This document shows, in pieces, positions 2,405 to 30,510 of a stretch of DNA of 64,000 bases (position 1 is its first letter; each line of letters starts with the position of its first letter). Source of the stretch: Escherichia coli (GTDB taxonomy: Bacteria > Pseudomonadota > Gammaproteobacteria > Enterobacterales > Enterobacteriaceae); the NCBI RefSeq assembly GCF_001677475.2, contig NZ_CP015229.1. One strand, given 5' to 3'. The notes under the pieces were generated by a model. It did not search any database. It was not told the origin of the DNA and saw only the letters and a program-made list of their open reading frames with translations. The position numbers and the translations under genes are program-made.

Positions 2405-3748
2405 ATGAGTTGGAATAACCGGGTGGTCTGGAGTGAAGGACAATTTTTGTTGCCACAGATGTTTCAGCAGCAGGAACGCTATCTGGAACATGTCATTCAT
2501 TATCGCAGTTTGCCTCTTTCACCTTTTTACTGGGGTTTCAATGAGTATGGTATTGGTAGTGAGGCGCTGAACATCGGAAAACTGGTACTTACGAAGGCTT
2601 CCGGGGTATTTGCTGACGGTACACCTTTTAATGCGCCGGGTCATACACCACTCCCGCCGCCGCTGACCATCCTTCCAGAACATCTTAACCAGTTGATTTA
2701 TCTGGCTGTGCCAATACGTACGCCGAACAGTGAAGAAACCAGTTTCGACAATAACCCTGAATCACTGGCACGTTTTTCGGTACATGAAAGTGAAATCCGT
2801 GATGCCAATTCGCTGGGGCGAGGCGCGCAACTGCTGCAACTTAGCCACCTGCGCTTGCGACTGTTACCGGAAAAGGCGGTGACAGACGCGTGGATCGGCC
2901 TGCCGCTGACGCGCATCACGGCGCTGCATCCCGATGGTCGGGTCGATATAGACAAAGAGTTGATCCCGCCAGTGGCGAACTACCAGGCCAGTACGCTGAT
3001 ATGTACCTGGCTGTCGTGGATTAACGATCTGATAAAAATGCGTGCAGATTCGCTGGCGGAACGATTGACGGGGAGCGACAAACACGGTCATGAAGCGGCG
3101 GAAGTGTCGGATTACCTGCTTCTGCAAGTTCTTAATCGTTTCGGCCCCTTATTGATCCATATGTCGAAAACGCCGCTATCGCCTGAAGTACTTTATCGTA
3201 ACCTCTGCGCACTGGCCGGAGAACTCTCTACCTACGTGCGTCCGCAAACACGTCGTCCGGAAGAATATAAAGAATATAAGCACCTGACGCCCTATGCCGG
3301 GCTGAAATCGGTGGTGGACGAGGTTCAGTATCTACTGAATGCTGTGCTAATACGTGGGGCGCAGCGAATCCCTCTGGAAGAGGGAACTTACGGTATTCTC
3401 AATGCGGTGGTTGAACCTACCGAACTGTCAGATTTCAGCTCGTTAGTATTGGCGGTGAAGGCACAGATGTCCGCCGACACCTTACTACAACATTTTTCGG
3501 CTCAGACCAAAATAGGGCCGTCAGAACGCCTGCCGGAACTGATTCGCTCGCACCTTCCTGGTCTTGTTCTACAGGTGCTGCCAGTGCCACCGCGTCAGAT
3601 CCCGTTCCAGTCCGGTTACATCTATTACGACATCCGCCGCGACGGCGTGTTGTGGGAACATATCGCCCGCTATGGTGGCATGGCAATGCATACCGCCGGA
3701 GAGTTTCCAGGGCTGGAGCTGGAGCTGTGGGGAGTTCGCGATAAATGA
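2405..3748 (+). CDS. tssK: T6SS baseplate protein TssK
   Basis: 447 aa; N-terminus W..GQFLLPQMFQQQERYLEH typical of TssK; order tssJ-tssK-tssL. Confidence 0.85.
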   Translation: MSWNNRVVWSEGQFLLPQMFQQQERYLEHVIHYRSLPLSPFYWGFNEYGIGSEALNIGKLVLTKASGVFADGTPFNAPGHTPLPPPLTILPEHLNQLIYLAVPIRTPNSEETSFDNNPESLARFSVHESEIRDANSLGRGAQLLQLSHLRLRLLPEKAVTDAWIGLPLTRITALHPDGRVDIDKELIPPVANYQASTLICTWLSWINDLIKMRADSLAERLTGSDKHGHEAAEVSDYLLLQVLNRFGPLLIHMSKTPLSPEVLYRNLCALAGELSTYVRPQTRRPEEYKEYKHLTPYAGLKSVVDEVQYLLNAVLIRGAQRIPLEEGTYGILNAVVEPTELSDFSSLVLAVKAQMSADTLLQHFSAQTKIGPSERLPELIRSHLPGLVLQVLPVPPRQIPFQSGYIYYDIRRDGVLWEHIARYGGMAMHTAGEFPGLELELWGVRDK

Positions 3749-4464
3749 CCGACGATATTCTGACGCAACCTGCGGTGAATACCCTGCAATTACAGCCTTC
3801 AATGAGGGGAACAAGGTCGCCTGATAATGACGGTTACGATACGCTCGTCCAGGACAGCCTTCGCAGGGAAGATATAAAGGTGGTGGTTGAAGACGGGCCA
3901 GATTTGAAGCTCCGCTTGGCTGAGATCACTGCTGCTGTGAATCCTCTTCTGGCGGCGGCCAGCCCTCTGTTATGCGCGCTGGCGCAAATGCCCCGTGAAC
4001 TTTCCCCTGGTTTTGTCGAACATTATCGCGCCCTACTGGAGCGTGAAGTCCGCCGGTATCAGACGCTGTGCGACCAGGCAAACCTGCGCCGCGAACATGT
4101 GCTGGCGGTACGTTACTGCGTGTGCACGGCGCTGGATGAAGCTGCCAACAACACCGTCTGGGGGCGACGCGGTGTCTGGGCCGGGAAGAGCCTGCTGGTG
4201 ACTTTTCATGGCGAAAGTGAAGGCGGCATCAAGCTGTTTCAGATAATCGGGCGTCTGGCCGCCAGCTTCCAGGAGCACAGCGATGTACTGGAAATCATTT
4301 ACCACATTCTGGGACTGGGTTTTGAAGGCCGCTACAGTGTACGGCCTGACGGGCGTAAACAACTGGACGATATCCGCCAGCAACTGCTGACTCAACTGGT
4401 CCAGCGTCGCGATCCGATCACGCCGACGCTCTTGCCGGGTTTTGCCGGTGCCGTCAGTGGGTGA
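3745..4464 (+). CDS. tssL: T6SS membrane-complex protein TssL (DotU-like), cytoplasmic domain; ends at in-frame TGA
   Basis: 239 aa, position after tssK; no TM helix in this ORF; next ORF is in the same frame. Confidence 0.75.
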   Translation: MTDDILTQPAVNTLQLQPSMRGTRSPDNDGYDTLVQDSLRREDIKVVVEDGPDLKLRLAEITAAVNPLLAAASPLLCALAQMPRELSPGFVEHYRALLEREVRRYQTLCDQANLRREHVLAVRYCVCTALDEAANNTVWGRRGVWAGKSLLVTFHGESEGGIKLFQIIGRLAASFQEHSDVLEIIYHILGLGFEGRYSVRPDGRKQLDDIRQQLLTQLVQRRDPITPTLLPGFAGAVSG

Positions 4465-5061
4465 ATGCGGCGGATGCGCCGGGTGCCGGTCTGGCTGAGC
4501 GCCGGAATCGCCCTGCTGGTGATGCTGACGCTGTTTGGCCTTTACAGCCACCGGATGAACCTCGCCACCGAAACCGTACAACAGCGTATCGACGCCATTG
4601 GTAAAAATCTTCCGCCGCCACCCGTTCCGGTGCATAAACTGCGGTTGAAAATCCTGCTGGCGAACGAAATCGCCCGTGGCCTGCTGACGGTGGAGGAAGA
4701 TGACCATCACAGCCGTGTAATCTTTCGTGGCGATACGATGTTTATACCGGGGCAGAAAACCGTGAATGATGCGCTGCGCCCGGTGATTGACAAGGCCGCG
4801 CGTGAGATTGCGCGTGTGGGGGGCGCGGTGACGGTGACCGGCCACACGGACAGCCAGCCGATCCACTCCGCTGAATTCCCGTCCAACCAGGTATTGTCGG
4901 AAAAACGTGCGGCAGAAGTAGCTTCGCTGCTGACATCTGGTGGCGTTCCGGCTAGCCGAATTCGGGGTGTCGGTAAAGGGGATACTATGCCGGTGGCTGA
5001 TAATAGTACTAAAACTGGACGAGCGCAGAATCGCCGGGTGGAAATTCTGGTGGTGGAGTGA
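4465..5061 (+). CDS. TM-anchored OmpA/MotB-like peptidoglycan-binding domain protein (TssL C-terminal part / TagL-like)
   Basis: N-terminal TM helix (VPVWLSAGIALLVMLTLFGL) then OmpA-like C-terminus (...VTGHTDSQP...RAQNRRVEILVVE); same frame as tssL. Confidence 0.8.
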   Translation: MRRMRRVPVWLSAGIALLVMLTLFGLYSHRMNLATETVQQRIDAIGKNLPPPPVPVHKLRLKILLANEIARGLLTVEEDDHHSRVIFRGDTMFIPGQKTVNDALRPVIDKAAREIARVGGAVTVTGHTDSQPIHSAEFPSNQVLSEKRAAEVASLLTSGGVPASRIRGVGKGDTMPVADNSTKTGRAQNRRVEILVVE

Positions 5062-5068
5062 ATTAATA

Positions 5069-5755
5069 ATGGAAAAGCTAGAGTGTAATGCGTCTAACCA
5101 TTCGCCAGTGTGGGGAGTAACAGAATTTATATTCTGGAAACTGGCGCCTAAAAAATGGGGGGGAGGCGTAGCATTTGGGCGTTATTTTAAAGATGGTTGG
5201 GTGAAGCATAACGGTCTTTTGATCAATGCAGCTGCAAATGCCTGGCATTTACCTGCCCCCTTACTTGCTGGAGTTTGTTGGATTGAAGTAGGGGGTGATC
5301 CTCAGATTATAGACACGCTGGCATTTGAATTTCGTGCTATGAGTTGGAGTGGGCCTGAATGGGTTGATGAACATATCACAATCGCTTCGAAACCAGAAAA
5401 AACTTCTTTTGGTGCGGTGAGTATGCAATTGCGAACTGCAGCCAGAACACTCGGGCTTGATGAGACTAAAATGGACAACTCTCAGTTGCGTGAGCTGGCA
5501 AATTGTCTCCAGCATGATGTGTTTAATATACAATTAGCTGCAAGACATCTTTATCAATTGGCTGAAAAAGATGGTTTTCAGGTATCCTTACCTCACCTGA
5601 CAAAAGAACAAATAAGAATTATTGGAGCTCGTTATAATCGAGGTGTTTCCCTTAGTCTGGAAAAAATAAAGGAAGATACCAGCTATGGCGATTTTATTAT
5701 AAATAACTGGTTACATTTCTCTAGTTTATTAATAACTACCTGGAAGTCTTCATGA
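5069..5755 (+). CDS. Lytic-transglycosylase/lysozyme-like (SLT-type) protein, T6SS-associated
   Basis: Motifs reminiscent of SLT domains (...WIEVGGDP..., ...FGAVSMQL..., ...GARYNRG...); no signal peptide; ATG with RBS downstream of track start. Confidence 0.45.
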   Translation: MEKLECNASNHSPVWGVTEFIFWKLAPKKWGGGVAFGRYFKDGWVKHNGLLINAAANAWHLPAPLLAGVCWIEVGGDPQIIDTLAFEFRAMSWSGPEWVDEHITIASKPEKTSFGAVSMQLRTAARTLGLDETKMDNSQLRELANCLQHDVFNIQLAARHLYQLAEKDGFQVSLPHLTKEQIRIIGARYNRGVSLSLEKIKEDTSYGDFIINNWLHFSSLLITTWKSS

Positions 5756-6039
5756 GAAAAATAATTCAGATATCAGGGTGGTTATTATTTATTATGGGAT
5801 TGGTCACTATCATGCTTTTTTCCGGGAGTGAGTACCAGTGGATGCAGGATATGGACCCTTCAATAACAGCATTACCTCAGGGAAACGGAAATAGAGATGT
5901 AATCAGAAAATTAATTTATTCTATTTCAGTGGCTATTCAGATTGTTCTTTATTTTCTTTCAGTATCGCGTACAGGAAAGGGATTTTCAGCCCTGGGTATT
6001 TTGCTATTACTGATTACCGCATGGAGCTCTGAACAATAA
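5752..6039 (+). CDS. Small integral membrane protein (2-3 TM helices); possible immunity/accessory
   Basis: 95 aa, hydrophobic helices; overlaps neighbours by ATGA/TAATG junctions. Confidence 0.4.
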   Translation: MRKIIQISGWLLFIMGLVTIMLFSGSEYQWMQDMDPSITALPQGNGNRDVIRKLIYSISVAIQIVLYFLSVSRTGKGFSALGILLLLITAWSSEQ

Positions 6040-9000
6040 TGCAAAAATTTCTCAGTCTGCTGTTTTCCCGCCGCACACTGGCCGTTGTCGGCGTGGTGGT
6101 GCTGGCGTTGCTGGTCTGGTTTATCGGGCCGCTGGTGGCGTTTGACACCTTGCATCCGCTTGCGTCCGTGGGTAGCCGGGTAGTCACTATCGTTCTGTTA
6201 CTGATGTTCCTTGCACTGTGGCTGGTTAACTGGTCGATGAGCATCATTGGCGTTACGGTTCTGTGCCTGGTTATCGGCTTTGTCTCACCGTTGCTGGCCT
6301 TCGGTGATGTTTATCCATTTGCGCCGCTGTGGCTGCGTCTGACGCTTATCGGCCTGATCCTTCTGTCTTATACGCTGTATGGCCTGTACCGATTGTGGCG
6401 GGCGCTGCGTCTGGATGAACAACTGCTGCGCCGTTTCCTGCATCCGCGCGGGGAAGATGTTCCGGTGGCAGGGGAAATTAAAGCCGACTTACGCACCGTC
6501 AGCCATATTGTCACTCGCGCTATTCGGCAACTGAAGCAACTGCGCGTAGACCTGCCGGGTTGGCGTAAGGTGCTGGAAGGAAAGCGTTTTCTGTACGAAC
6601 TGCCGTGGTTCATGGTTATCGGCAGCCCCGGTGATGGTAAAACTACCGCGCTGCTTAACACCGGGCTACAGTTTCCGCTGGCGGAGCAGATGGAGCAGAC
6701 CGCGCATATCCTTACCGTGCCGGGCGGCGGCACGCTGCACTGCGACTGGTGGTTCACCAACGAAGCGGTGCTCATTGACACTGCCGGGCGCTATGCCCGC
6801 CACGATGACGGCGGTGAAATCAGTGCGACCCAGCGCAACGCCGGGGAATGGCAGGGGTTTCTGGGACTGCTGCGTAAACACCGTCCCGGCGCACCGCTGA
6901 ACGGCGTTATCCTGACGCTAAACGTGGCGGATCTGACCGCGCAGTCCCCGGCGGAACGACTGGCTGCCTGTGCGGCTTTGCGTGCGCGGCTGGCTGAACT
7001 GCGTGAGACGCTGGGTATTCGTTTCCCGGTTTATCTGGTTGTCACTAAGATGGATCTGCTGCCGGGCTTTACGGAGTATTTCCGTGGGCTGACCAGTCAC
7101 CTGCGTGCCCAGGTCTGGGGCTTCACCCTGCCATACAGCCGCAGGCGTCACGCCAGCGATCCGCAGTCGTTGCATGCGCTCTGTGGCCAGGAACTGGCAA
7201 ATCTGACGCTGCGGCTGGATCAGGGGCTGGATACCCGGTTGCAGGAAGAGTACGACCTTAAAAGCCGTCAACGGCTCTACCGCTTTCCGCGCGAATTTGC
7301 CGCGCTGGGCGCGCCGCTGCTGGAAGCCATTGAACAGATTTTCCTCGATTCAAAATTTGACGCCACTCAGCTTAACAACACCCTACGCGGCGTATTTTTT
7401 ACCAGCGCCGCACAGGCGCAGGCAGACGCGGTGGCCGATCAGACGGGCATCTGGCAGCGCTTTGTCCGGGCGATCAAAGGGAAAGTGGAGTCACCTTCTC
7501 ATACCTTACCGGACGGCAACCGCAGCTATTTTCTTCATGACCTACTGACCCAGTTTATCTTCCGTGAAGCACACCTGGTGGAGCCGAATCTTCAATGGGC
7601 CTGGCGTTATCGCCTGCTGCGTACTGGCGGGCATCTGCTGGTACTAGCGTTGGCTTTCTGGTTGTGGCAGGGAATGCAGGGCAGCCAGCAGGGTAACAGC
7701 GGCTATCTGAATGAAATCGCCAGCCGGACGGTCCAACTGGATGGTGACGTCAAAGCCTATACCGGAAAACCTGCTATGCAGCCTGTCCCAGTCCTGTTGA
7801 ACCAGGCGCGGGCGCTCTCTGCCTGGCCGGGGCTGGACCCGGACTCACCGCCGCTGGCCTGGCGTTATGGTCTTTACAGCGTTCCGCCAGTAATGGAGAG
7901 CGTCGCATCCCTGTATGACCGTCTGCTGGACCAGCTCCTATTGCCGCCACTGGTGAAGCGCATGGAATATGTGCTTTCAGATGCCATTGCTCGTCAGGAC
8001 AGCAAAGCCGCGTATGACGCTCTGCATGTTTATCTGCTGCTGAATCTTGATAAAGACCACGAGGACAAATACAACGCAGCGGAGATCCACGCCTGGGTAC
8101 TGAACGATCTGGAAAACCGCGATAGCGTGGCGGAGTTCGGCGGCCGTGCAGCAGTGCTGGAACATATCGACGCCCTGTTTGACGGCAGCCGTGTGGTGCA
8201 TTCGCCTTATGACAAAGATGAGGGACTGATCCGCATGGCGCGGGCTTTCCTTGACGGTCATACCAGCACCGAGCGTATCTATACTCGAGCCCTGGCTTCC
8301 ATGGAGAGCGAAGCACCGCAGGAGTTTTCGCTGGTTCGCGCGGTGGGCGCGGATGCGGGGACGGTTTTTGTCCGCACGGATGGCGCGCCACTGGATAGGG
8401 GCGTGCCCGGCATCTTTACTCGCGAAGGCTACCGGGAACTGTTCGACAAACGGCTGTCGGAGTTTGTCGCCTCCGCATCAGCGGACGACGCCTGGGTAAT
8501 GGGCCGGGAAAACGCGCAAAAAAAAACGACTGATATTGTGATGAGCCAGTTGCCGGGGCAGGAACTCCCGGTTACCCGTGAGGTACGCCGCCTGTATCTG
8601 GCTGAATATGCCCGCCGCTGGCAGGATTTTCTGGCTAGTATTCACAGCATCAACAGTGCCGGGGAAGACGGTAGTCCCGGACTGGCGTATGACCTTCAGG
8701 TGCTTCGCACACTGGCCTCGCCTGACTCACCTCTGATGCGCCTGAGTAAAGCGGTGGTGGAGCAGACCACGCTGGTACCGCCGCTGGATGCGCAGGCCAG
8801 ACAAAAACAAATGGCCCAGCGCGCGCAGGACCGGCTCTCCGGTAATGCGGGTAAAGCAGTGCAGACGGCAAAGCTGTTGCAGGATATCCACCCGGAAGAG
8901 CGGCTGGAAAAATCGCTGGTGGATGACCGTTTCGCCGCTCTGCGGGAAGTGGTTTCCGGGCGGACGGACAGTGGACAGGGGGGCGGGGCGCCGCAGTTAA

Positions 9001-22598: not shown

Positions 22599-23072
22599 AT
22601 GGGCAGGATAAGCTCGGGAGGAATGATGTTTAAGGCAATAACGACAGTCGCCGCACTGGTCATCGCCACCAGTGCAATGGCACAGGATGATTTAACCATT
22701 AGCAGCCTTGCAAAGGGCGAAACCACCAAATCTGCATTTAATCAGATGGTGCAAGGGCATAAGCTGCCAGCCTGGGTGATGAAAGGCGGTACTTATACCC
22801 CTGCACAAACCGTGACATTGGGAGATGAGACGTATCAGGTGATGAGCGCGTGCAAACCGCATGACTGTGGCTCGCAACGTATCGCTGTGATGTGGTCCGA
22901 GAAATCTAATCAGATGACGGGGCTGTTCTCGACTATTGATGAGAAAACGTCGCAAGAGAAACTCACCTGGCTGAATGTGAACGATGCGCTTTCGATTGAT
23001 GGTAAAACGGTGCTGTTCGCGGCGTTGACCGGCAGCCTGGAAAACCATCCGGATGGCTTTAATTTTAAATAA
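22599..23072 (+). CDS. ivy: Inhibitor of vertebrate lysozyme Ivy
   Basis: 157 aa, signal peptide, CKPHDC motif; matches E. coli Ivy. Confidence 0.9.
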   Translation: MGRISSGGMMFKAITTVAALVIATSAMAQDDLTISSLAKGETTKSAFNQMVQGHKLPAWVMKGGTYTPAQTVTLGDETYQVMSACKPHDCGSQRIAVMWSEKSNQMTGLFSTIDEKTSQEKLTWLNVNDALSIDGKTVLFAALTGSLENHPDGFNFK

Positions 23073-23086
23073 TTAGCGGATAAAGA

Positions 23087-23108
23087 AACGGAGCCTTTCG
23101 GCTCCGTT
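23087..23108. terminator. Hairpin terminator between convergent ivy and fadE
   Basis: AACGGAGCC-TTTC-GGCTCCGTT. Confidence 0.45.
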
Positions 23109-23114
23109 ATTCAA

Positions 23115-25559
23115 TTACGCGGCTTCAACTTTCCGCACTTTCTCCGGCAACTTTACCGGCTTCGTCGCCAGCTCTTCCGGATCAAAGTCATCAACGTTAA
23201 TACTGCGCAGACGGCTTTCTTCAGCTTTCACCAGCATAGCGGCTTCATCTTTATCAATCAGCCCCTTCGCCAGCGCGTTGTGCGCCAGTTCATCCAGACG
23301 GGTAAACGGCAGGTTTTTACCCAGCTCTTTACAGATCCGCTGATGAATCGGGTCGGCGGCAATCACATCCACTAGCGCCTCTTCCAGTAAACCAACTGGG
23401 TTATGCTCGCTCGGCGTCAGGTACTGACCGCGACCAATGCGGGAACGGGTGGCGTTCGGCACTTGTAAAATCTTCGCCACCTTATGATCCAGCTTGTCAG
23501 ACGGTGCCAGATAATGACGTCCGGTCGGGAAGATCACCACATTCAGCAGCCCGGCAACCACGCGGTTCGGGAAGTTTTGCAGTAAATCGTCCATCGCCTG
23601 TTCTGCCTGATACAGCGCATCCTGTACGCCCCAGTGCACCAGCGGCAGGTCGGCTTCATTACGGCCTTCGTCGTCATAACGCTTCAGAACGGCAGAGGCG
23701 AGGTAAAGCTGGCTTAAAATATCCCCCAGACGTGCCGAGATACGCTCGCGACGTTTCAGGCTGCCGCCCAGCACAGCCATCGAGACATCAGAAAGCAGGG
23801 CGAGGTTGGCGCTCAGGCGGTTCAGGTGTTGATAGTAGCGTTTAGTGGCATCGCCGGTTGGCGTGCTGCTGGTTAAACCGCGCGTCAGGCCCAGCCAGAA
23901 GCTGCGAACTTTGTTGCTACCGACGTGACCGATATGTTTAAACAGGAGTTTATCGAACGCGTTGACGTCATTGTTCTTCGCCGCTTCCATCTCTTCCAGC
24001 ACGTACGGATGGCAACGAATCGCTCCTTGTCCGAAGATCATCATGCTGCGGGTCAGAATGTTAGCCCCTTCAACGGTGATGGCAATCGGTGCGCCCTGGT
24101 AAGCACGCGCCAGGAAGTTGCTCTGCCCGAGCATAATGCCTTTGCCACCAGTGATATCCATCGCATCAATAATCGACTGCTGCCCACGGTGGGTACAGTG
24201 ATACTTAACGATAGCCGACAGCACGGCAGGTTTCTCACCGAGCATAATGCCGTAGGTAATCAGCGACGCCGCAGCATCCATTACGTACGCATTACCGGCA
24301 ATACGCGCGAGCGGCTCTTCAATCCCTTCCATCTTACCAATAGAAATTTTGAACTGACGGCGAATGTGCGCATACGCACCCGTTGCCAGCGCTACCGATT
24401 TCACGCCGCCGGTTGAGTTGGAAGGCAGGGTGATGCCGCGGCCTACCGAGAGGCACTCCACCAGCATCCGCCAGCCTTGCCCGGCCATTTTTGGTCCGCC
24501 GATAATGTAATCGATCGGTACGAAGACATCTTTACCGCGCGTCGGTCCGTTCTGGAACGGTACGTTCAGCGGGAAATGGCGACGACCAATTTCCACGCCC
24601 GGCGTGGTGGTCGGGATCAGCGCACAGGTAATACCTAAATCTTCTGCGCCACCCAGCAGTTTTTCCGGGTCGGAGAGTTTAAACGCCAGCCCAAGCACGG
24701 TCGCAATCGGTGCCAGCGTAATGTAGCGTTTGTTCCAGGTCAGACGCATCCCCAGCACCTGCTGGCCCTGCCATTCCCCCATGCAGACAATTCCGGTATC
24801 CGGGATCGCGCCCGCATCGGAACCCGCTTCCGGGCTGGTCAGTGCAAAGCAAGGGATTTCCTGACCACGCGCCAGACGCGGCAGATAGTGATTTTTCTGC
24901 TCGTCAGTGCCGTAATGTTGCAGCAGCTCGCCCGGACCTAATGAGTTCGGCACGCCGACGGTAATCGCCAGGATCCCGCTCACGCCGGAGAGTTTTTGCA
25001 GCACGCGAGACTGGGCATAAGCCGAGAACTCCAGCCCGCCGTACTCTTTTTTGATGATCATCGCGAAGAAACGATGCTCTTTAAGGTACGCCCACAACTC
25101 CGGCGGCAAATCAGCCAGCTCATGAGTAATCTGGAAATCATTCGCCATCCGGCAGGCTTCTTCTACCGGGCCGTCGAGAAACGCTTGCTCTTCTGCGGTC
25201 AGGCGTGGCTGCGGATAGTTATGCAGCTTTTTCCAGTCCGGCTTGCCCTGGAACAAATCGCCTTCCCACCAGGTGGTGCCTGCGTCGATTGCTTCTTTCT
25301 CAGTGCGCGACATCGGCGGCATTACCTTACGGAAACCGCGAAATACCGGCGCGGAAATCATCGACTTACGCATAGGCGCAAAGTTAAATGGCACGAGGAT
25401 AATGGCCAGAGGCACCAGTACCCACGCCGACCACAGACCAGCAACGCCGAGGGCGGCTGTCCAGGCGAGCAAAATCAGACTGCTGATAAATAAGCTCACG
25501 CGGTGATAGAACAACGCGCCGAGCAGGACAACCGTAGCGAGAATACTCAAAATCATCAT
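23115..25559 (-). CDS. fadE: Acyl-CoA dehydrogenase FadE
   Basis: Matches E. coli FadE from [11 protein letters not shown]...; track ORF carries a 26-codon upstream extension. Confidence 0.92.
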
Positions 25560-25798
25560 AACGAAAAGCCCCTTACTTGTAGGAGGTCTGACCACTTGTG
25601 ATGATATGGTTGTAGTGGATGTAAAAACATTTAGCAATGTGTTTACAATATAATTACAACAAAGCTCACATTGTTGCTGTTTTTATCCGCACTTCAGGTC
25701 AAAAAGTCCTGGTCATAGCACCTGCCCGTACTTCTCGCTTTTGGCGGTATCCGGTACACTGCATTTTGTCTATTACATTTATGCTGAAGGATATCCTC

Positions 25799-26377
25799 AT
25801 GTACCAGGATCTTATTCGTAACGAACTGAACGAAGCGGCGGAAACGCTGGCTAACTTTTTAAAAGATGACGCCAATATTCACGCCATTCAGCGCGCGGCG
25901 GTCCTGTTAGCAGACAGCTTTAAAGCTGGTGGCAAAGTGCTTTCCTGCGGCAACGGCGGCTCCCATTGCGACGCTATGCACTTTGCCGAAGAGTTGACCG
26001 GTCGCTACCGTGAAAACCGTCCGGGCTACCCGGCGATTGCCATTTCTGACGTTAGTCATATTTCCTGCGTCGGTAACGATTTTGGTTTCAATGATATTTT
26101 CTCCCGTTACGTTGAAGCGGTAGGTCGCGAAGGCGATGTACTGCTGGGGATCTCCACCTCCGGTAACTCTGCAAACGTGATCAAAGCGATCGCGGCGGCG
26201 CGTGAGAAGGGGATGAAAGTGATCACCCTGACAGGTAAAGACGGCGGCAAAATGGCTGGCACGGCGGATATTGAAATTCGCGTTCCGCACTTTGGTTATG
26301 CCGACCGCATTCAGGAGATCCACATTAAAGTGATCCATATCCTGATCCAGTTAATTGAAAAAGAGATGGTTAAGTAA
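25799..26377 (+). CDS. gmhA: Phosphoheptose isomerase GmhA
   Basis: Matches E. coli GmhA from [15 protein letters not shown]... Confidence 0.92.
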
Positions 26378-26382
26378 GGGCT

Positions 26383-26440
26383 TTTCTCCCTCTCCCTTTC
26401 AGGGAGAGGGCCGGGGTGAGGGTAACAGCCTGCACCTTTT
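26383..26440. repeat. Half copy (inverse orientation) of GC-rich palindromic intergenic repeat; likely gmhA terminator hairpin
   Basis: CCCTCTCCC-TTTCA-GGGAGAGGG next to GGGGTGAGGG; same motifs as the copies at 46.6, 54.0 and 56.3 kb. Confidence 0.4.
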
Positions 26441-26498
26441 TACTTTTTAATCAATCTTCGCCGGGGGCCATGCGCTCCCGCTGTTGTGGAGGTTACCC

Positions 26499-27266: not shown

Positions 27267-27977
27267 TGCCAGCTGTGGCTGCACAACTTCGTGGCTTAAC
27301 GGCTTGCTGACCACGTAACGACCATTGACCACAGAAACGGTCGGTGGCTTACGGGTTTGCTCAAAGTAGTCGTAACCTGGCTTCAGCTGCTCCCAGAAGT
27401 CCTTAAAGTTGGAATATTTATGGCGCTTCATATTGGCGTCGGTCATGCGGAACGGGTAAATACTCACTTGCACGCTCGGCTGACCAAACACCAGCGCACC
27501 AGTAACGAACTGGAAGATCTCATCAATACCCTGATTGGTCATCGCGTAGCAGCCGATGGAAACACAATCGCCGTGGATCATCAGATATTTCCCTTCATAA
27601 CCATGCGCACGGTCATAAGCATTGGGGAATCCAATATTAATCGCTTTGTAGTAACGGCTGTCTGGTTTTAACTGATTACGCTGGACGCTATAAAACCCTT
27701 CCGGGCTTTTGAAATCGCCCTGACGCTGTTTTGGCCCTAAGCCGCCGGAATATTTACAGATTTTATAGCTGTCGAGCAGTTGATATTGCTCGCCCATTTT
27801 GACGTAGAGATCGAGCGTACGTTCTTCCTTGAAGATCTGGATGTAGACAGGGGATCCCATCAACTGCTGCTTATACTCTTTGCTCACTGGCGTGGTCGAG
27901 CTACTGCTGCCCAGCAAACCGGCAAACGAAACGCACGGGATCAACAACATCGCAAGAATTAATGCGATTTTACGCAT
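27237..27977 (-). CDS. yafK: YkuD-family L,D-transpeptidase-like protein YafK
   Basis: Signal peptide plus conserved YafK sequence. Confidence 0.85.
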
Positions 27978-28132
27978 ACTGCTTATTCCTTGATAAAACG
28001 GTTACACACGCCAGGACGGCAAAATGGATCCCAAATCGGAATAGTCTGGATTTGGAAGGCTCACATTATCACCAAAAGAGTTTTACGCAAGCCTGTCGGC
28101 GCAGGGTTTACAAATTTCATCGGAAGCGGGCT

Positions 28133-28411
28133 TTACCCAAATAGCGCCGCGTGAGTTCCAGTTCTCTCAAATCGTAAAAGTTTATCGGTAAGTTTGTAAA
28201 TCAGGATCCAGTCCGGCTCGACATGAGCATCGCGATAACCTTTCCATGAACCTTGCAGCGGGTGGTCTTTATAAACAGCTGGAAGCGGTAAAGTATTATT
28301 GATAAGAAGCGTCATAAGATATTTCAATTTATTCATATCCTTATGACGCTTTTGTGCAAGTTTTACATCCTTTGAAAATTGTCCCGAGTATTCAATATCC
28401 CTTTGAATCAT
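28133..28411 (-). CDS. yafQ: Toxin YafQ (RelE-family mRNA interferase)
   Basis: 92 aa matching YafQ; downstream of dinJ in operon. Confidence 0.88.
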   Translation of the reverse strand: MIQRDIEYSGQFSKDVKLAQKRHKDMNKLKYLMTLLINNTLPLPAVYKDHPLQGSWKGYRDAHVEPDWILIYKLTDKLLRFERTGTHAALFG

Positions 28412-28413
28412 AT

Positions 28414-28674
28414 TTAAATTCCTAATTTATCAAATAAATCATCGGCGTCTTTGGCCTTATGAACATCAACGCCAGCTTCGCTGTTTTTAATTGATTGAAT
28501 GGTTAATTGATTAGGCTCGCGTAAATCAAACGGCAATGCCTTTTCACGCGCGACTTTTGTGAGGGTTATGCGAACCAGGTCAGAGATGGTCAGCCCCATC
28601 CCGGCCAGTACGTCCGCCGCCTGATTCTTCAGATCTTCATCGATTCGGGCGCGAACAAACGCGTTAGCAGCCAT
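28414..28674 (-). CDS. dinJ: Antitoxin DinJ
   Basis: 86 aa matching DinJ. Confidence 0.88.
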   Translation of the reverse strand: MAANAFVRARIDEDLKNQAADVLAGMGLTISDLVRITLTKVAREKALPFDLREPNQLTIQSIKNSEAGVDVHKAKDADDLFDKLGI

Positions 28675-28689
28675 TGGGGTATCTCCTGT

Positions 28690-28705
28690 GCTGTATATTT
28701 ATTCA
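28690..28705 (-). promoter_or_regulatory. LexA (SOS) box upstream of dinJ
   Basis: CTGAATAAATATACAG on the dinJ strand, close to CTGT-N8-ACAG, about 16 bp upstream of the start codon. Confidence 0.55.
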
Positions 28706-28883
28706 GCTTGAATTGTAGCTCAAATGAGCAACAGCGACAATCCATGAGTAATTTAATAAACGGATGTTTTTACATAATTAACTGAAATATATTTATTAAT
28801 TTTATAATAATGGTTTATTAAGTTTGTTCAGGTACGGGCCGGGATACACTGCAACATCAATGCATGACCAGCCATTATTGAGA

Positions 28884-29633
28884 ATGTCTTTGCCGTCGAT
28901 TCCCTCTTTTGTGTTGTCGGGATTATTGTTGCTTTGCTTGCCGTTTTCTTCATTTGCCAGCGCCACCACATCACATATCTCTTTCAGCTACGCCGCCCGC
29001 CAGCGGATGCAAAACCGTGCGCGTTTATTAAAACAGTACCAAACCCATCTGAAAAAACAGGCCAGCTATATTGTGGAAGGCAATGCCGAAAGCAGAAAGG
29101 CGCTGCGCCAGCACAACCGCGAACAGATAAAACAGCATCCAGAATGGTTTCCTGCGCCGCTCAAGGCGAGTGACAGACGCTGGCAGGCGCTGGCGGAGAA
29201 CAACCATTTCTTAAGCAGCGACCATCTACACAACATCACCGAAGTGGCGATTCACCGCCTGGAGCAGCAGCTTGGTAAGCCTTACGTCTGGGGCGGTACG
29301 CGGCCCGATCAAGGCTTCGACTGTAGCGGGTTGGTTTTTTATGCCTACAACAAGATCCTCGAGGCGAAGCTCCCGCGTACGGCCAATGAGATGTATCACT
29401 ACCATCGGGCAACGATTGTGGCGAATAACGACCTGCGCCGGGGAGATTTGCTGTTTTTCCATATTCACAGCCGTGAGATTGCCGATCATATGGGCGTGTA
29501 TCTGGGAGACGGGCAATTTATCGAATCGCCACGCACCGGGGAAACCATACGGGTAAGCCGGTTAGCCGAACCTTTCTGGCAGGATCATTTTTTGGGCGCG
29601 CGACGGATTTTGACGGAAGAGACGATTTTGTAG
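28884..29633 (+). CDS. yafL: NlpC/P60-family lipoprotein YafL
   Basis: Signal peptide; NlpC/P60 core ...GFDCSGLVFYAY...; matches YafL. Confidence 0.8.
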   Translation: MSLPSIPSFVLSGLLLLCLPFSSFASATTSHISFSYAARQRMQNRARLLKQYQTHLKKQASYIVEGNAESRKALRQHNREQIKQHPEWFPAPLKASDRRWQALAENNHFLSSDHLHNITEVAIHRLEQQLGKPYVWGGTRPDQGFDCSGLVFYAYNKILEAKLPRTANEMYHYHRATIVANNDLRRGDLLFFHIHSREIADHMGVYLGDGQFIESPRTGETIRVSRLAEPFWQDHFLGARRILTEETIL

Positions 29634-29635
29634 AA

Positions 29636-29725
29636 CGGATAAGGCGTTCACGCCGCATCCGGCGGTTATGCGCTGGTGCCTGATGCGACGCTGGCGCGTC
29701 TTATCAGGCCTACGAGTCTGAGAAT
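29636..29725. repeat. REP element(s)
   Basis: GCCGGATGCGGCGTGAACGCCTTATCC-type palindromic units. Confidence 0.55.

Positions 29726-30307: not shown

Positions 30308-30510
<203 letters not shown>

Follow-up and report, generated by a model that had tools for sequence, protein, structure and literature searches.

The dinJ-yafQ locus in the analysed DNA (a stretch of 64,000 nt, the window in what follows) is the well-studied and already known type II toxin-antitoxin pair of Escherichia coli. It is an accessory, optional cassette with clean presence and absence alleles. As judged from the compared promoters, its LexA box is peculiar to Escherichia and was added to a promoter that is conserved and autorepressed. 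We are confident of the account as a whole, namely that this is an Escherichia dinJ-yafQ operon that would be controlled by autorepression at a palindrome together with a modest LexA layer, that its two genes are probably translated in a coupled manner, and that it encodes an mRNase, YafQ, neutralised by DinJ.

Genes and products of the locus

Two adjoining minus-strand open reading frames were listed at the locus, 28133-28411 (92 aa) and 28414-28674 (86 aa). The antitoxin gene lies directly upstream of the toxin gene in one operon arrangement, and a gap of 2 nt separates them in the window sequence. The genes and their ribosome-binding sequences are given below.

28133-28411, minus strand: yafQ, RelE-superfamily ribosome-dependent mRNA endonuclease toxin, 92 aa (ORF with PF15738, TIGR00053 and PDB 4ML2/4Q2U)
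28414-28674, minus strand: dinJ, RelB/DinJ-family antitoxin and autorepressor, 86 aa (ORF with PF04221, TIGR02384 and PDB 4ML0/4Q2U)
28420-28423, minus strand: Shine-Dalgarno-like AGGA for yafQ, within the final dinJ codons and 8 nt before the yafQ ATG (read from the sequence)
28683-28687, minus strand: Shine-Dalgarno sequence AGGAG of dinJ, 8 nt 5' of the dinJ ATG (read from the sequence)

In the profile search, DinJ matched PF04221 with an E-value of 3.4e-34 (117 bits, cutoff 22.4) and scored above threshold with TIGR02384 (83.7 bits, cutoff 45.65). Its matches to PDB 4ML0/4Q2U had E-values of about 6e-51 to 7e-51 (7e-51 for 4Q2U_A). YafQ matched PF15738 with an E-value of 4.5e-32 (110.6 bits, cutoff 30), scored above threshold with TIGR00053 (120.9 bits, cutoff 87.25), and also matched TIGR02385 RelE_StbE at 93.4 bits. 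Its matches to PDB 4ML2/4Q2U had E-values near 1e-60 (1.9e-60 for 4ML2_A, residues 1-92). Both proteins match the structures 4Q2U, 4ML0 and 4ML2 over their full length, with E-values of 1e-51 to 1e-60. The preliminary description had placed a dinJ-yafQ toxin-antitoxin operon here, and the open reading frames, the Pfam and NCBIfam matches and the solved structures all bear this out. It had also called the locus ordinary, and rightly so, as the locus, the structures, the toxin mechanism and the LexA box are all in the literature.

Each protein differs from its K-12 (MG1655) counterpart at a single residue. The change in DinJ is I69V, the window having V69, and the change in YafQ is Y12F, the window having F12. 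Since F12 was found in 15/15 aligned YafQ homologues, it is the family-wide state and the Y12 of K-12 is the derived one. We considered Y12F as a toxin-disabling substitution and rejected it for the same reason, F12 being present in all 15 aligned homologues. The YafQ residues H50, D61, H63, D67, H87 and F91 are all present and invariant across the 15 aligned homologues, and the residues proposed for mRNA cleavage are His50/His63, His87, Asp67, Asp61 and Phe91 (PMC4652777). According to the abstract of PMC4996492, the K-12 protein cuts in-frame AAA-G/A codons on the ribosome. Toxicity and neutralisation by DinJ are known for this K-12 protein, one residue away, and are assumed for the F12 allele by likeness. 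Free YafQ would then enter the ribosomal A site and cleave in-frame AAA-G/A codons, which would halt translation, with His50/His63 presumably acting as base and His87 as acid. The identity of the genes and the presence of the catalytic residues come from the present analysis; the cleavage specificity and the heterotetramer are taken from the literature.

The N-terminus of DinJ is described as a ribbon-helix-helix that binds DNA as a dimer and its C-terminus as binding YafQ to give a heterotetramer (PMC6529426 and PMC4996492). In the operon studied here, the C-terminus of DinJ would likewise wrap YafQ and neutralise the toxin. The distance of 2 nt from the dinJ stop to the yafQ ATG, together with the AGGA inside dinJ, suggests that translation of the two genes is coupled, and PMC4996492 places the yafQ ribosome-binding site in the 3' part of dinJ. 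We take such coupling of dinJ and yafQ to be probable. On the other side of the operon, a scan for intrinsic terminators between yafQ and dpaA found none, and the RNA fold of 27975-28140 was no better than those of shuffled sequences (z -1.26).

The promoter, its palindrome and the LexA box

On the gene strand, the region 5' of dinJ is laid out as TTGTCG-CTGTTGCTCATTTGAGC-TACAAT-TCAAG-CTGAATAAATATACAG-CAC-AGGAG-ATACCCCA-ATG. The elements recognised in it are as follows.

28691-28706 (plus-strand coordinates, read on the gene strand), minus strand: LexA (SOS) box CTGAATAAATATACAG, 14/16 to the core consensus
28712-28717, minus strand: predicted -10 element TACAAT (consensus scan; 9/12 match together with the -35 element, 17-nt spacer)
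28715-28732, minus strand: 18-bp palindrome GTTGCTCA-TT-TGAGCTAC, filling the -35/-10 spacer and overlapping the -10 element; putative DinJ / DinJ-YafQ operator
28735-28740, minus strand: predicted -35 element TTGTCG (consensus scan)

We infer that the palindrome at 28715-28732 is the best candidate for the DinJ operator. As is typical of the palindromic operators through which type II toxin-antitoxin modules regulate themselves, it overlaps the core promoter and, in the sequence comparison described below, is kept along with the antitoxin. DinJ and DinJ-YafQ have been reported to repress the operon at a palindrome that overlaps promoter elements (PMC6529426).

The LexA box lies 17 nt upstream of the dinJ ATG, between the predicted -10 element and the Shine-Dalgarno sequence and over the predicted transcription start. 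It begins 5 nt downstream of the -10 element of the consensus-predicted promoter, and a box over the expected start would be in the usual position for repression by LexA. The preliminary description had put a box just upstream of dinJ, within 28133-28710, and it was found there as CTGAATAAATATACAG at 28691-28706. In comparison with the K-12 promoter, 28675-28792 was identical to MG1655, with the box at the same offset and neither displaced nor mutated.

In order of increasing length, three forms of the LexA motif were scanned in the window. The bare CTG-N10-CAG had 27 matches against 15.1 expected, a count that 0/100 shuffles reached, and nearly all of the matches were GC-rich and located elsewhere. 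The simplest explanation for this excess is the abundance of CTG and CAG codons, not the presence of LexA sites. The 16-nt core CTGTATATATATACAG with at most 2 mismatches had a single match in 64 kb, the one at this locus, with 0.00 expected from 100 shuffles; with at most 3 mismatches this was still the only match, with 0.04 expected. The 20-mer TACTG(TA)5CAGTA at up to 3 mismatches had no match in the 64-kb window, and by our own count the box agrees with the full 20-mer consensus at 15/20 positions, the outer TA..TA positions being unmatched. Since the bare motif was uninformative and the 20-mer matchless, the 16-nt core was used as the test. By that measure the box has the sequence that marks members of the LexA regulon, a CTG-N10-CAG palindrome with an AT-rich spacer near the consensus (14/16). 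Because the flanks of the 20-mer are poor, the term near-consensus, which had been applied to the box as such, holds for the 16-nt core only and fails for the 20-mer. The dinJ box reportedly has a published heterology index near 7, a value that we did not use.

A scan for DinJ in one genome per species gave 30 loci, among them loci in Escherichia sp., Yersinia, Xenorhabdus, Photorhabdus, Pectobacterium and several MAGs, and a plasmid search added one dinJ copy on a Citrobacter plasmid. A YafQ homologue was located immediately downstream of dinJ in most loci of the species scan, and the dpaA and yafL flanks were present only at the Escherichia locus among the scanned loci. With the window counted, 27/31 homologous promoters have, at the corresponding place, a fit to GTAGCTCA-NN-TGAGCTAC with 2 mismatches or fewer. 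Among the 31 loci, the window and Escherichia sp. MOD1-EC7003 alone had CTG-N10-CAG between the -10 element and the Shine-Dalgarno sequence, and a LexA box sought in the 29 non-Escherichia homologous loci was absent from all of them. The non-Escherichia genera examined are expected to use the same LexA motif. As these homologues lack the box, the module can work without it. In the window and MOD1-EC7003 the distance between operator and ATG exceeds that of most relatives by 7-8 nt (-58 vs about -50). Aligned with the window, the Citrobacter plasmid promoter keeps the -35 element, the palindrome and the -10 element and has unrelated sequence at the place of the box.

Within E. coli the 71-nt dinJ promoter was 100% identical in 2,330 of the 3,253 records. 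The box was intact in all full-length promoter variants sampled, and four strains had changes outside it. In the promoter allele of FORC_031, with EC96 listed alongside, the box reads CTGTATAAATATACAG and has one mismatch to the 16-nt consensus, not two. If LexA matters at this promoter, the CTGTATAAATATACAG allele should be more tightly repressed. As a separate observation, the dinJ promoter of E. coli EC96 (NZ_CP060748.1 3622586-3622756) can be followed intact as far as the middle of the box (CTGTATAAATAT), where unrelated sequence takes over, so that a deletion or rearrangement junction lies inside the LexA box.

The literature on regulation by LexA is mixed. LexA is reported to bind the dinJ promoter (Ruangprasert 2014, as cited in PMC4996492), a LexA consensus is described there (PMC6529426), and YafQ/DinJ is named among the LexA-regulated toxin-antitoxin systems in reviews (PMC9040746). 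PMC4996492, citing Armalyte 2012 and Fernandez de Henestrosa 2000, states that induction of dinJ-yafQ by DNA damage "has not been seen", whereas deletion of both lexA and sulA raised the expression of a dinJ-lacZ fusion 2-3 fold (PMC6015884). In that study the fusion was likewise higher in a dnaA mutant, a DnaA box overlapped the site, and repression by DnaA and LexA was independent and additive (PMC6015884). Given these two statements, the label SOS box in the preliminary description is sound for the sequence and for the reported binding, and too strong where regulation is meant. We conclude that the box is, as far as its sequence tells, a genuine LexA site whose effect is modest. This effect is probably masked by DinJ autorepression, and SOS control may plausibly be a weak layer confined to Escherichia. 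A modest LexA effect fits the restriction of the box to one genus, and that restriction in turn agrees with clear SOS induction having long eluded detection.

Two other explanations of the box were weighed. In one of them CTG-N10-CAG would be a chance palindrome, AT-rich like the leader around it and without regulatory function, and control would be left to autorepression by DinJ and DinJ-YafQ only. The bare motif is indeed common in the window (27 matches), but a core match of 14/16 is expected 0.00 times per 64 kb, and this one is placed just 3' of the predicted -10 element, the classic position for LexA repression. The absence of the motif from 29/29 non-Escherichia homologous loci, which retain the palindromic operator, speaks for this explanation; against it, the substitutions in the sampled variant E. 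coli promoters lie outside the box or bring it closer to the consensus. According to PMC4996492 no induction by damage has been observed, but the paper also reports LexA binding, and loss of LexA gave a 2-3 fold derepression (PMC6015884). On balance a chance origin appears improbable to us.

The other explanation would have the region of the box serve mainly a non-LexA regulator, either DnaA or a second, low-affinity DinJ site, with the LexA match being secondary. The overlapping DnaA box and the additive repression of dinJ by DnaA and LexA (PMC6015884) speak for it, but no good DnaA consensus was seen by eye in the region, the nearest candidate having about 2 mismatches, and CTG and CAG arms spaced by 10 are exactly the determinants of LexA. 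A second DinJ site is disfavoured because the conserved DinJ-type palindrome (GCTCA-N2-TGAGC) differs in sequence from the box. We regard a main role of another regulator as very unlikely, still more so than a chance match.

The reading that we prefer is a LexA site of modest effect next to a DinJ operator. Transcription would run leftward from a sigma-70 promoter, TTGTCG-17-TACAAT, bearing two stacked operators. At the first, the palindrome in the spacer and -10 element, DinJ dimers, alone or as DinJ2-YafQ2, would autorepress. At the second, the box over the predicted start, a LexA dimer would add further, modest repression. Of this reading, the anatomy of the promoter and operators, the identity of the box with that of K-12 and the pattern in which each operator is conserved come from the present analysis, and DNA binding by DinJ and LexA from the literature. 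The assignment of the palindrome to DinJ, the location of the box at +1 and an SOS input that is real but weak are what we infer.

Presence, absence and chromosomal context of the cassette

The preliminary description had considered the pair to be conserved housekeeping, and this did not hold. The dinJ-yafQ segment was present (at least 80% of 28000-28850) in 3,325 of the 5,426 complete E. coli genomes (~61%), there is a clean empty allele, and outside Escherichia the module occupies other sites and a plasmid. The pair is also phylogroup-limited, yafQ-dinJ having been described as restricted to the E/B1/A lineage and phylogroup F (PMC6896753), a phylogroup restriction described in PMC10790755 as well. 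For annotators this means that dinJ-yafQ is not housekeeping and is unsuitable as a core marker. The segments used to describe the locus and its surroundings are listed below, without strand, in order of position.

21700-26400: yafV-ivy-fadE-lpcA, best identity 97.7% to any complete E. coli genome
27631-28851: near-identical tract of 1,221 nt, 1 difference from E. coli ECCWS199, flanks 2-6% diverged
28000-28850: dinJ-yafQ segment, best identity 99.9% to any complete E. coli genome
28118-28950: presence/absence segment with dinJ-yafQ, the shared intergenic region and the first ~22 yafL codons; unrelated ~224 bp in cassette-less E. coli
28850-30310: yafL-rayT, best identity 95.0% to any complete E. 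coli genome
30400-55000: Flag-2 locus, best identity ~94% to complete E. coli genomes

Complete E. coli genomes without the cassette stop matching at 28117. The left boundary lies precisely at 28117|28118 and the right one falls between 28947 and ~28953. In ECONIH5 the sequence from 28118 to about 28950 is swapped for about 224 bp of unrelated sequence, and remnants of dinJ or yafQ sought in this empty allele were not found. The replacement encodes a different YafL signal peptide before a nearly identical mature YafL. The two YafL signal-peptide haplotypes, MSLPSIPSFVLSGLLLLCLPFSSFASA in the window (28884-28950) vs MSFMSSFLLGRFLHPGVFSLCVLLPLFASA at the comparison locus (4270-4342), are unrelated, and in the two compared alleles (window/K-12 vs ECONIH5) the type of signal peptide follows whether dinJ-yafQ is present. 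One E. coli dinJ recorded on a plasmid at 100% identity was rejected as a mobile copy, since it is a linear chromosomal fragment with fadE-lpcA-dpaA flanks.

The window has a mosaic make-up: compared with ECCWS199, divergence is about 2% to the left and about 6% to the right of 27631-28851. We rejected the view that the flanks are ordinary, mainstream E. coli, their best identities among the 5,426 complete genomes being 97.7%, 95.0% and 94%. The lineage of the window is represented among draft assemblies, GCA_019139975.1 matching it at 99.9-100% over 6.5 kb. The simplest reading of these identity profiles, on which the argument for import rests, is that the cassette, flanked by short arms of homology, probably reached a divergent Escherichia background in a recent recombinational import. 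If so, the locus would be a tidy example of a chromosomal toxin-antitoxin module moving by recombination.

With some reserve we incline to a fuller scenario that joins the box and the cassette. In it, the SOS box would be a recent, Escherichia-only graft that goes with a leader lengthened by ~7-8 nt. The promoter that received it has a DinJ-operator core conserved as far as Photorhabdus and still more distant proteobacterial (MAG) relatives, and the LexA site would be an evolutionary add-on of marginal weight. Homologous recombination would recently have carried the cassette, with homology arms of about 500 bp and 100 bp, out of mainstream E. coli into the divergent lineage of Escherichia to which the window belongs, and the cassette would be spreading between lineages as a selfish unit. 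That the palindrome of the autorepressor would be the deeply conserved control element and the LexA box confined to Escherichia is a small comparative gain.

The wider surroundings were also noted. An intact Flag-2 (lateral flagella) locus follows rayT at 30400-64000, with flhA, fliF, fliI, flgE, flgK, fliD, flgL and a glycosyltransferase; K-12 retains only the lfhA'/lafU' remnants of Flag-2. The part at 30400-55000 is covered to at least 80% in 1,251 of the 5,426 complete E. coli genomes, the best full-length matches being 94-95% identical. Upstream of fadE, at ~3000-21600, are a type VI secretion cluster (tssM, tssL, Vgr) and an RHS-repeat protein, and 3000-27900 is covered to at least 80% in only 9 complete E. 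coli genomes, at about 94% identity. Clusters of REP-like repeats flank rayT (a REP-associated tyrosine transposase) at 29630-29720 and 30308-30500 and cross-match several places of the comparison loci, so that the places-per-genome counts of the Flag-2 and yafL-rayT searches are inflated. After lpcA/gmhA, at 26378-26446, there is a short GC-rich palindromic sequence, CTCCCTCTCCCTTTCAGGGAGAGGGCCGGGGTGAGGG, where ECCWS199 has about 150 bp of REP-type repeats.

Comparison with known systems

E. coli relBE belongs to the same superfamilies, with a RelB-fold ribbon-helix-helix antitoxin, a RelE-fold ribosome-dependent mRNase and autoregulation at a palindrome in the promoter. DinJ fell below the equivalog cutoff of NF008412 (35.7 vs 96 bits), and the name attached to that model is only the generic RelB/DinJ-family; we take it to be the RelB model (PRK11235). 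relBE is not known to have a LexA box. The codon preference of RelE differs from that of YafQ.

Two further loci resemble dinJ-yafQ in having a LexA box. E. coli dinB-yafNOP is another toxin-antitoxin locus under a LexA box near its start, at a different locus, and yafNO is SOS-induced (PMC2814082). The Salmonella Typhimurium gene STM14_4236, also named dinJ, appears in a table of SOS genes with values that we interpret as a fold induction of 7.82, 1 box, a box distance of 14 and a heterology index of 8.27 (PMC8072944). It is a LexA-boxed gene at a different locus and was not retrieved by the scan for close relatives of DinJ; it may be an orthologue of the dinJ studied here or a DinJ-family pair that came under LexA independently.

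The non-Escherichia homologues (Citrobacter portucalensis pSTN0717-27-3, Yersinia, Xenorhabdus, Photorhabdus and Pectobacterium) have the same antitoxin-toxin order and the same core of -35 element, palindrome and -10 element. Compared with the window, their chromosomal and plasmid copies are 70-86% identical in DinJ and 63-79% in YafQ and lack the LexA box. In most of them the operator is 7-8 nt nearer to the ATG, and they occupy other genomic sites, without dpaA or yafL flanks.

The K-12 dinJ-yafQ locus (b0226-b0225; 4Q2U/4ML0/4ML2) has the same genes in the same order and with the same neighbours, dpaA/yafK and yafL. It differs from the window in Y12 of YafQ (F12 in the window) and I69 of DinJ (V69 in the window), and K-12 has lost the Flag-2 locus, which is intact in the window beyond rayT, the gene that follows yafL. 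The two sequences differ at 9 nucleotides over 833 nt, but from the ATG to -118 the promoter is identical, including the LexA box, the palindrome and the -10 and -35 elements.
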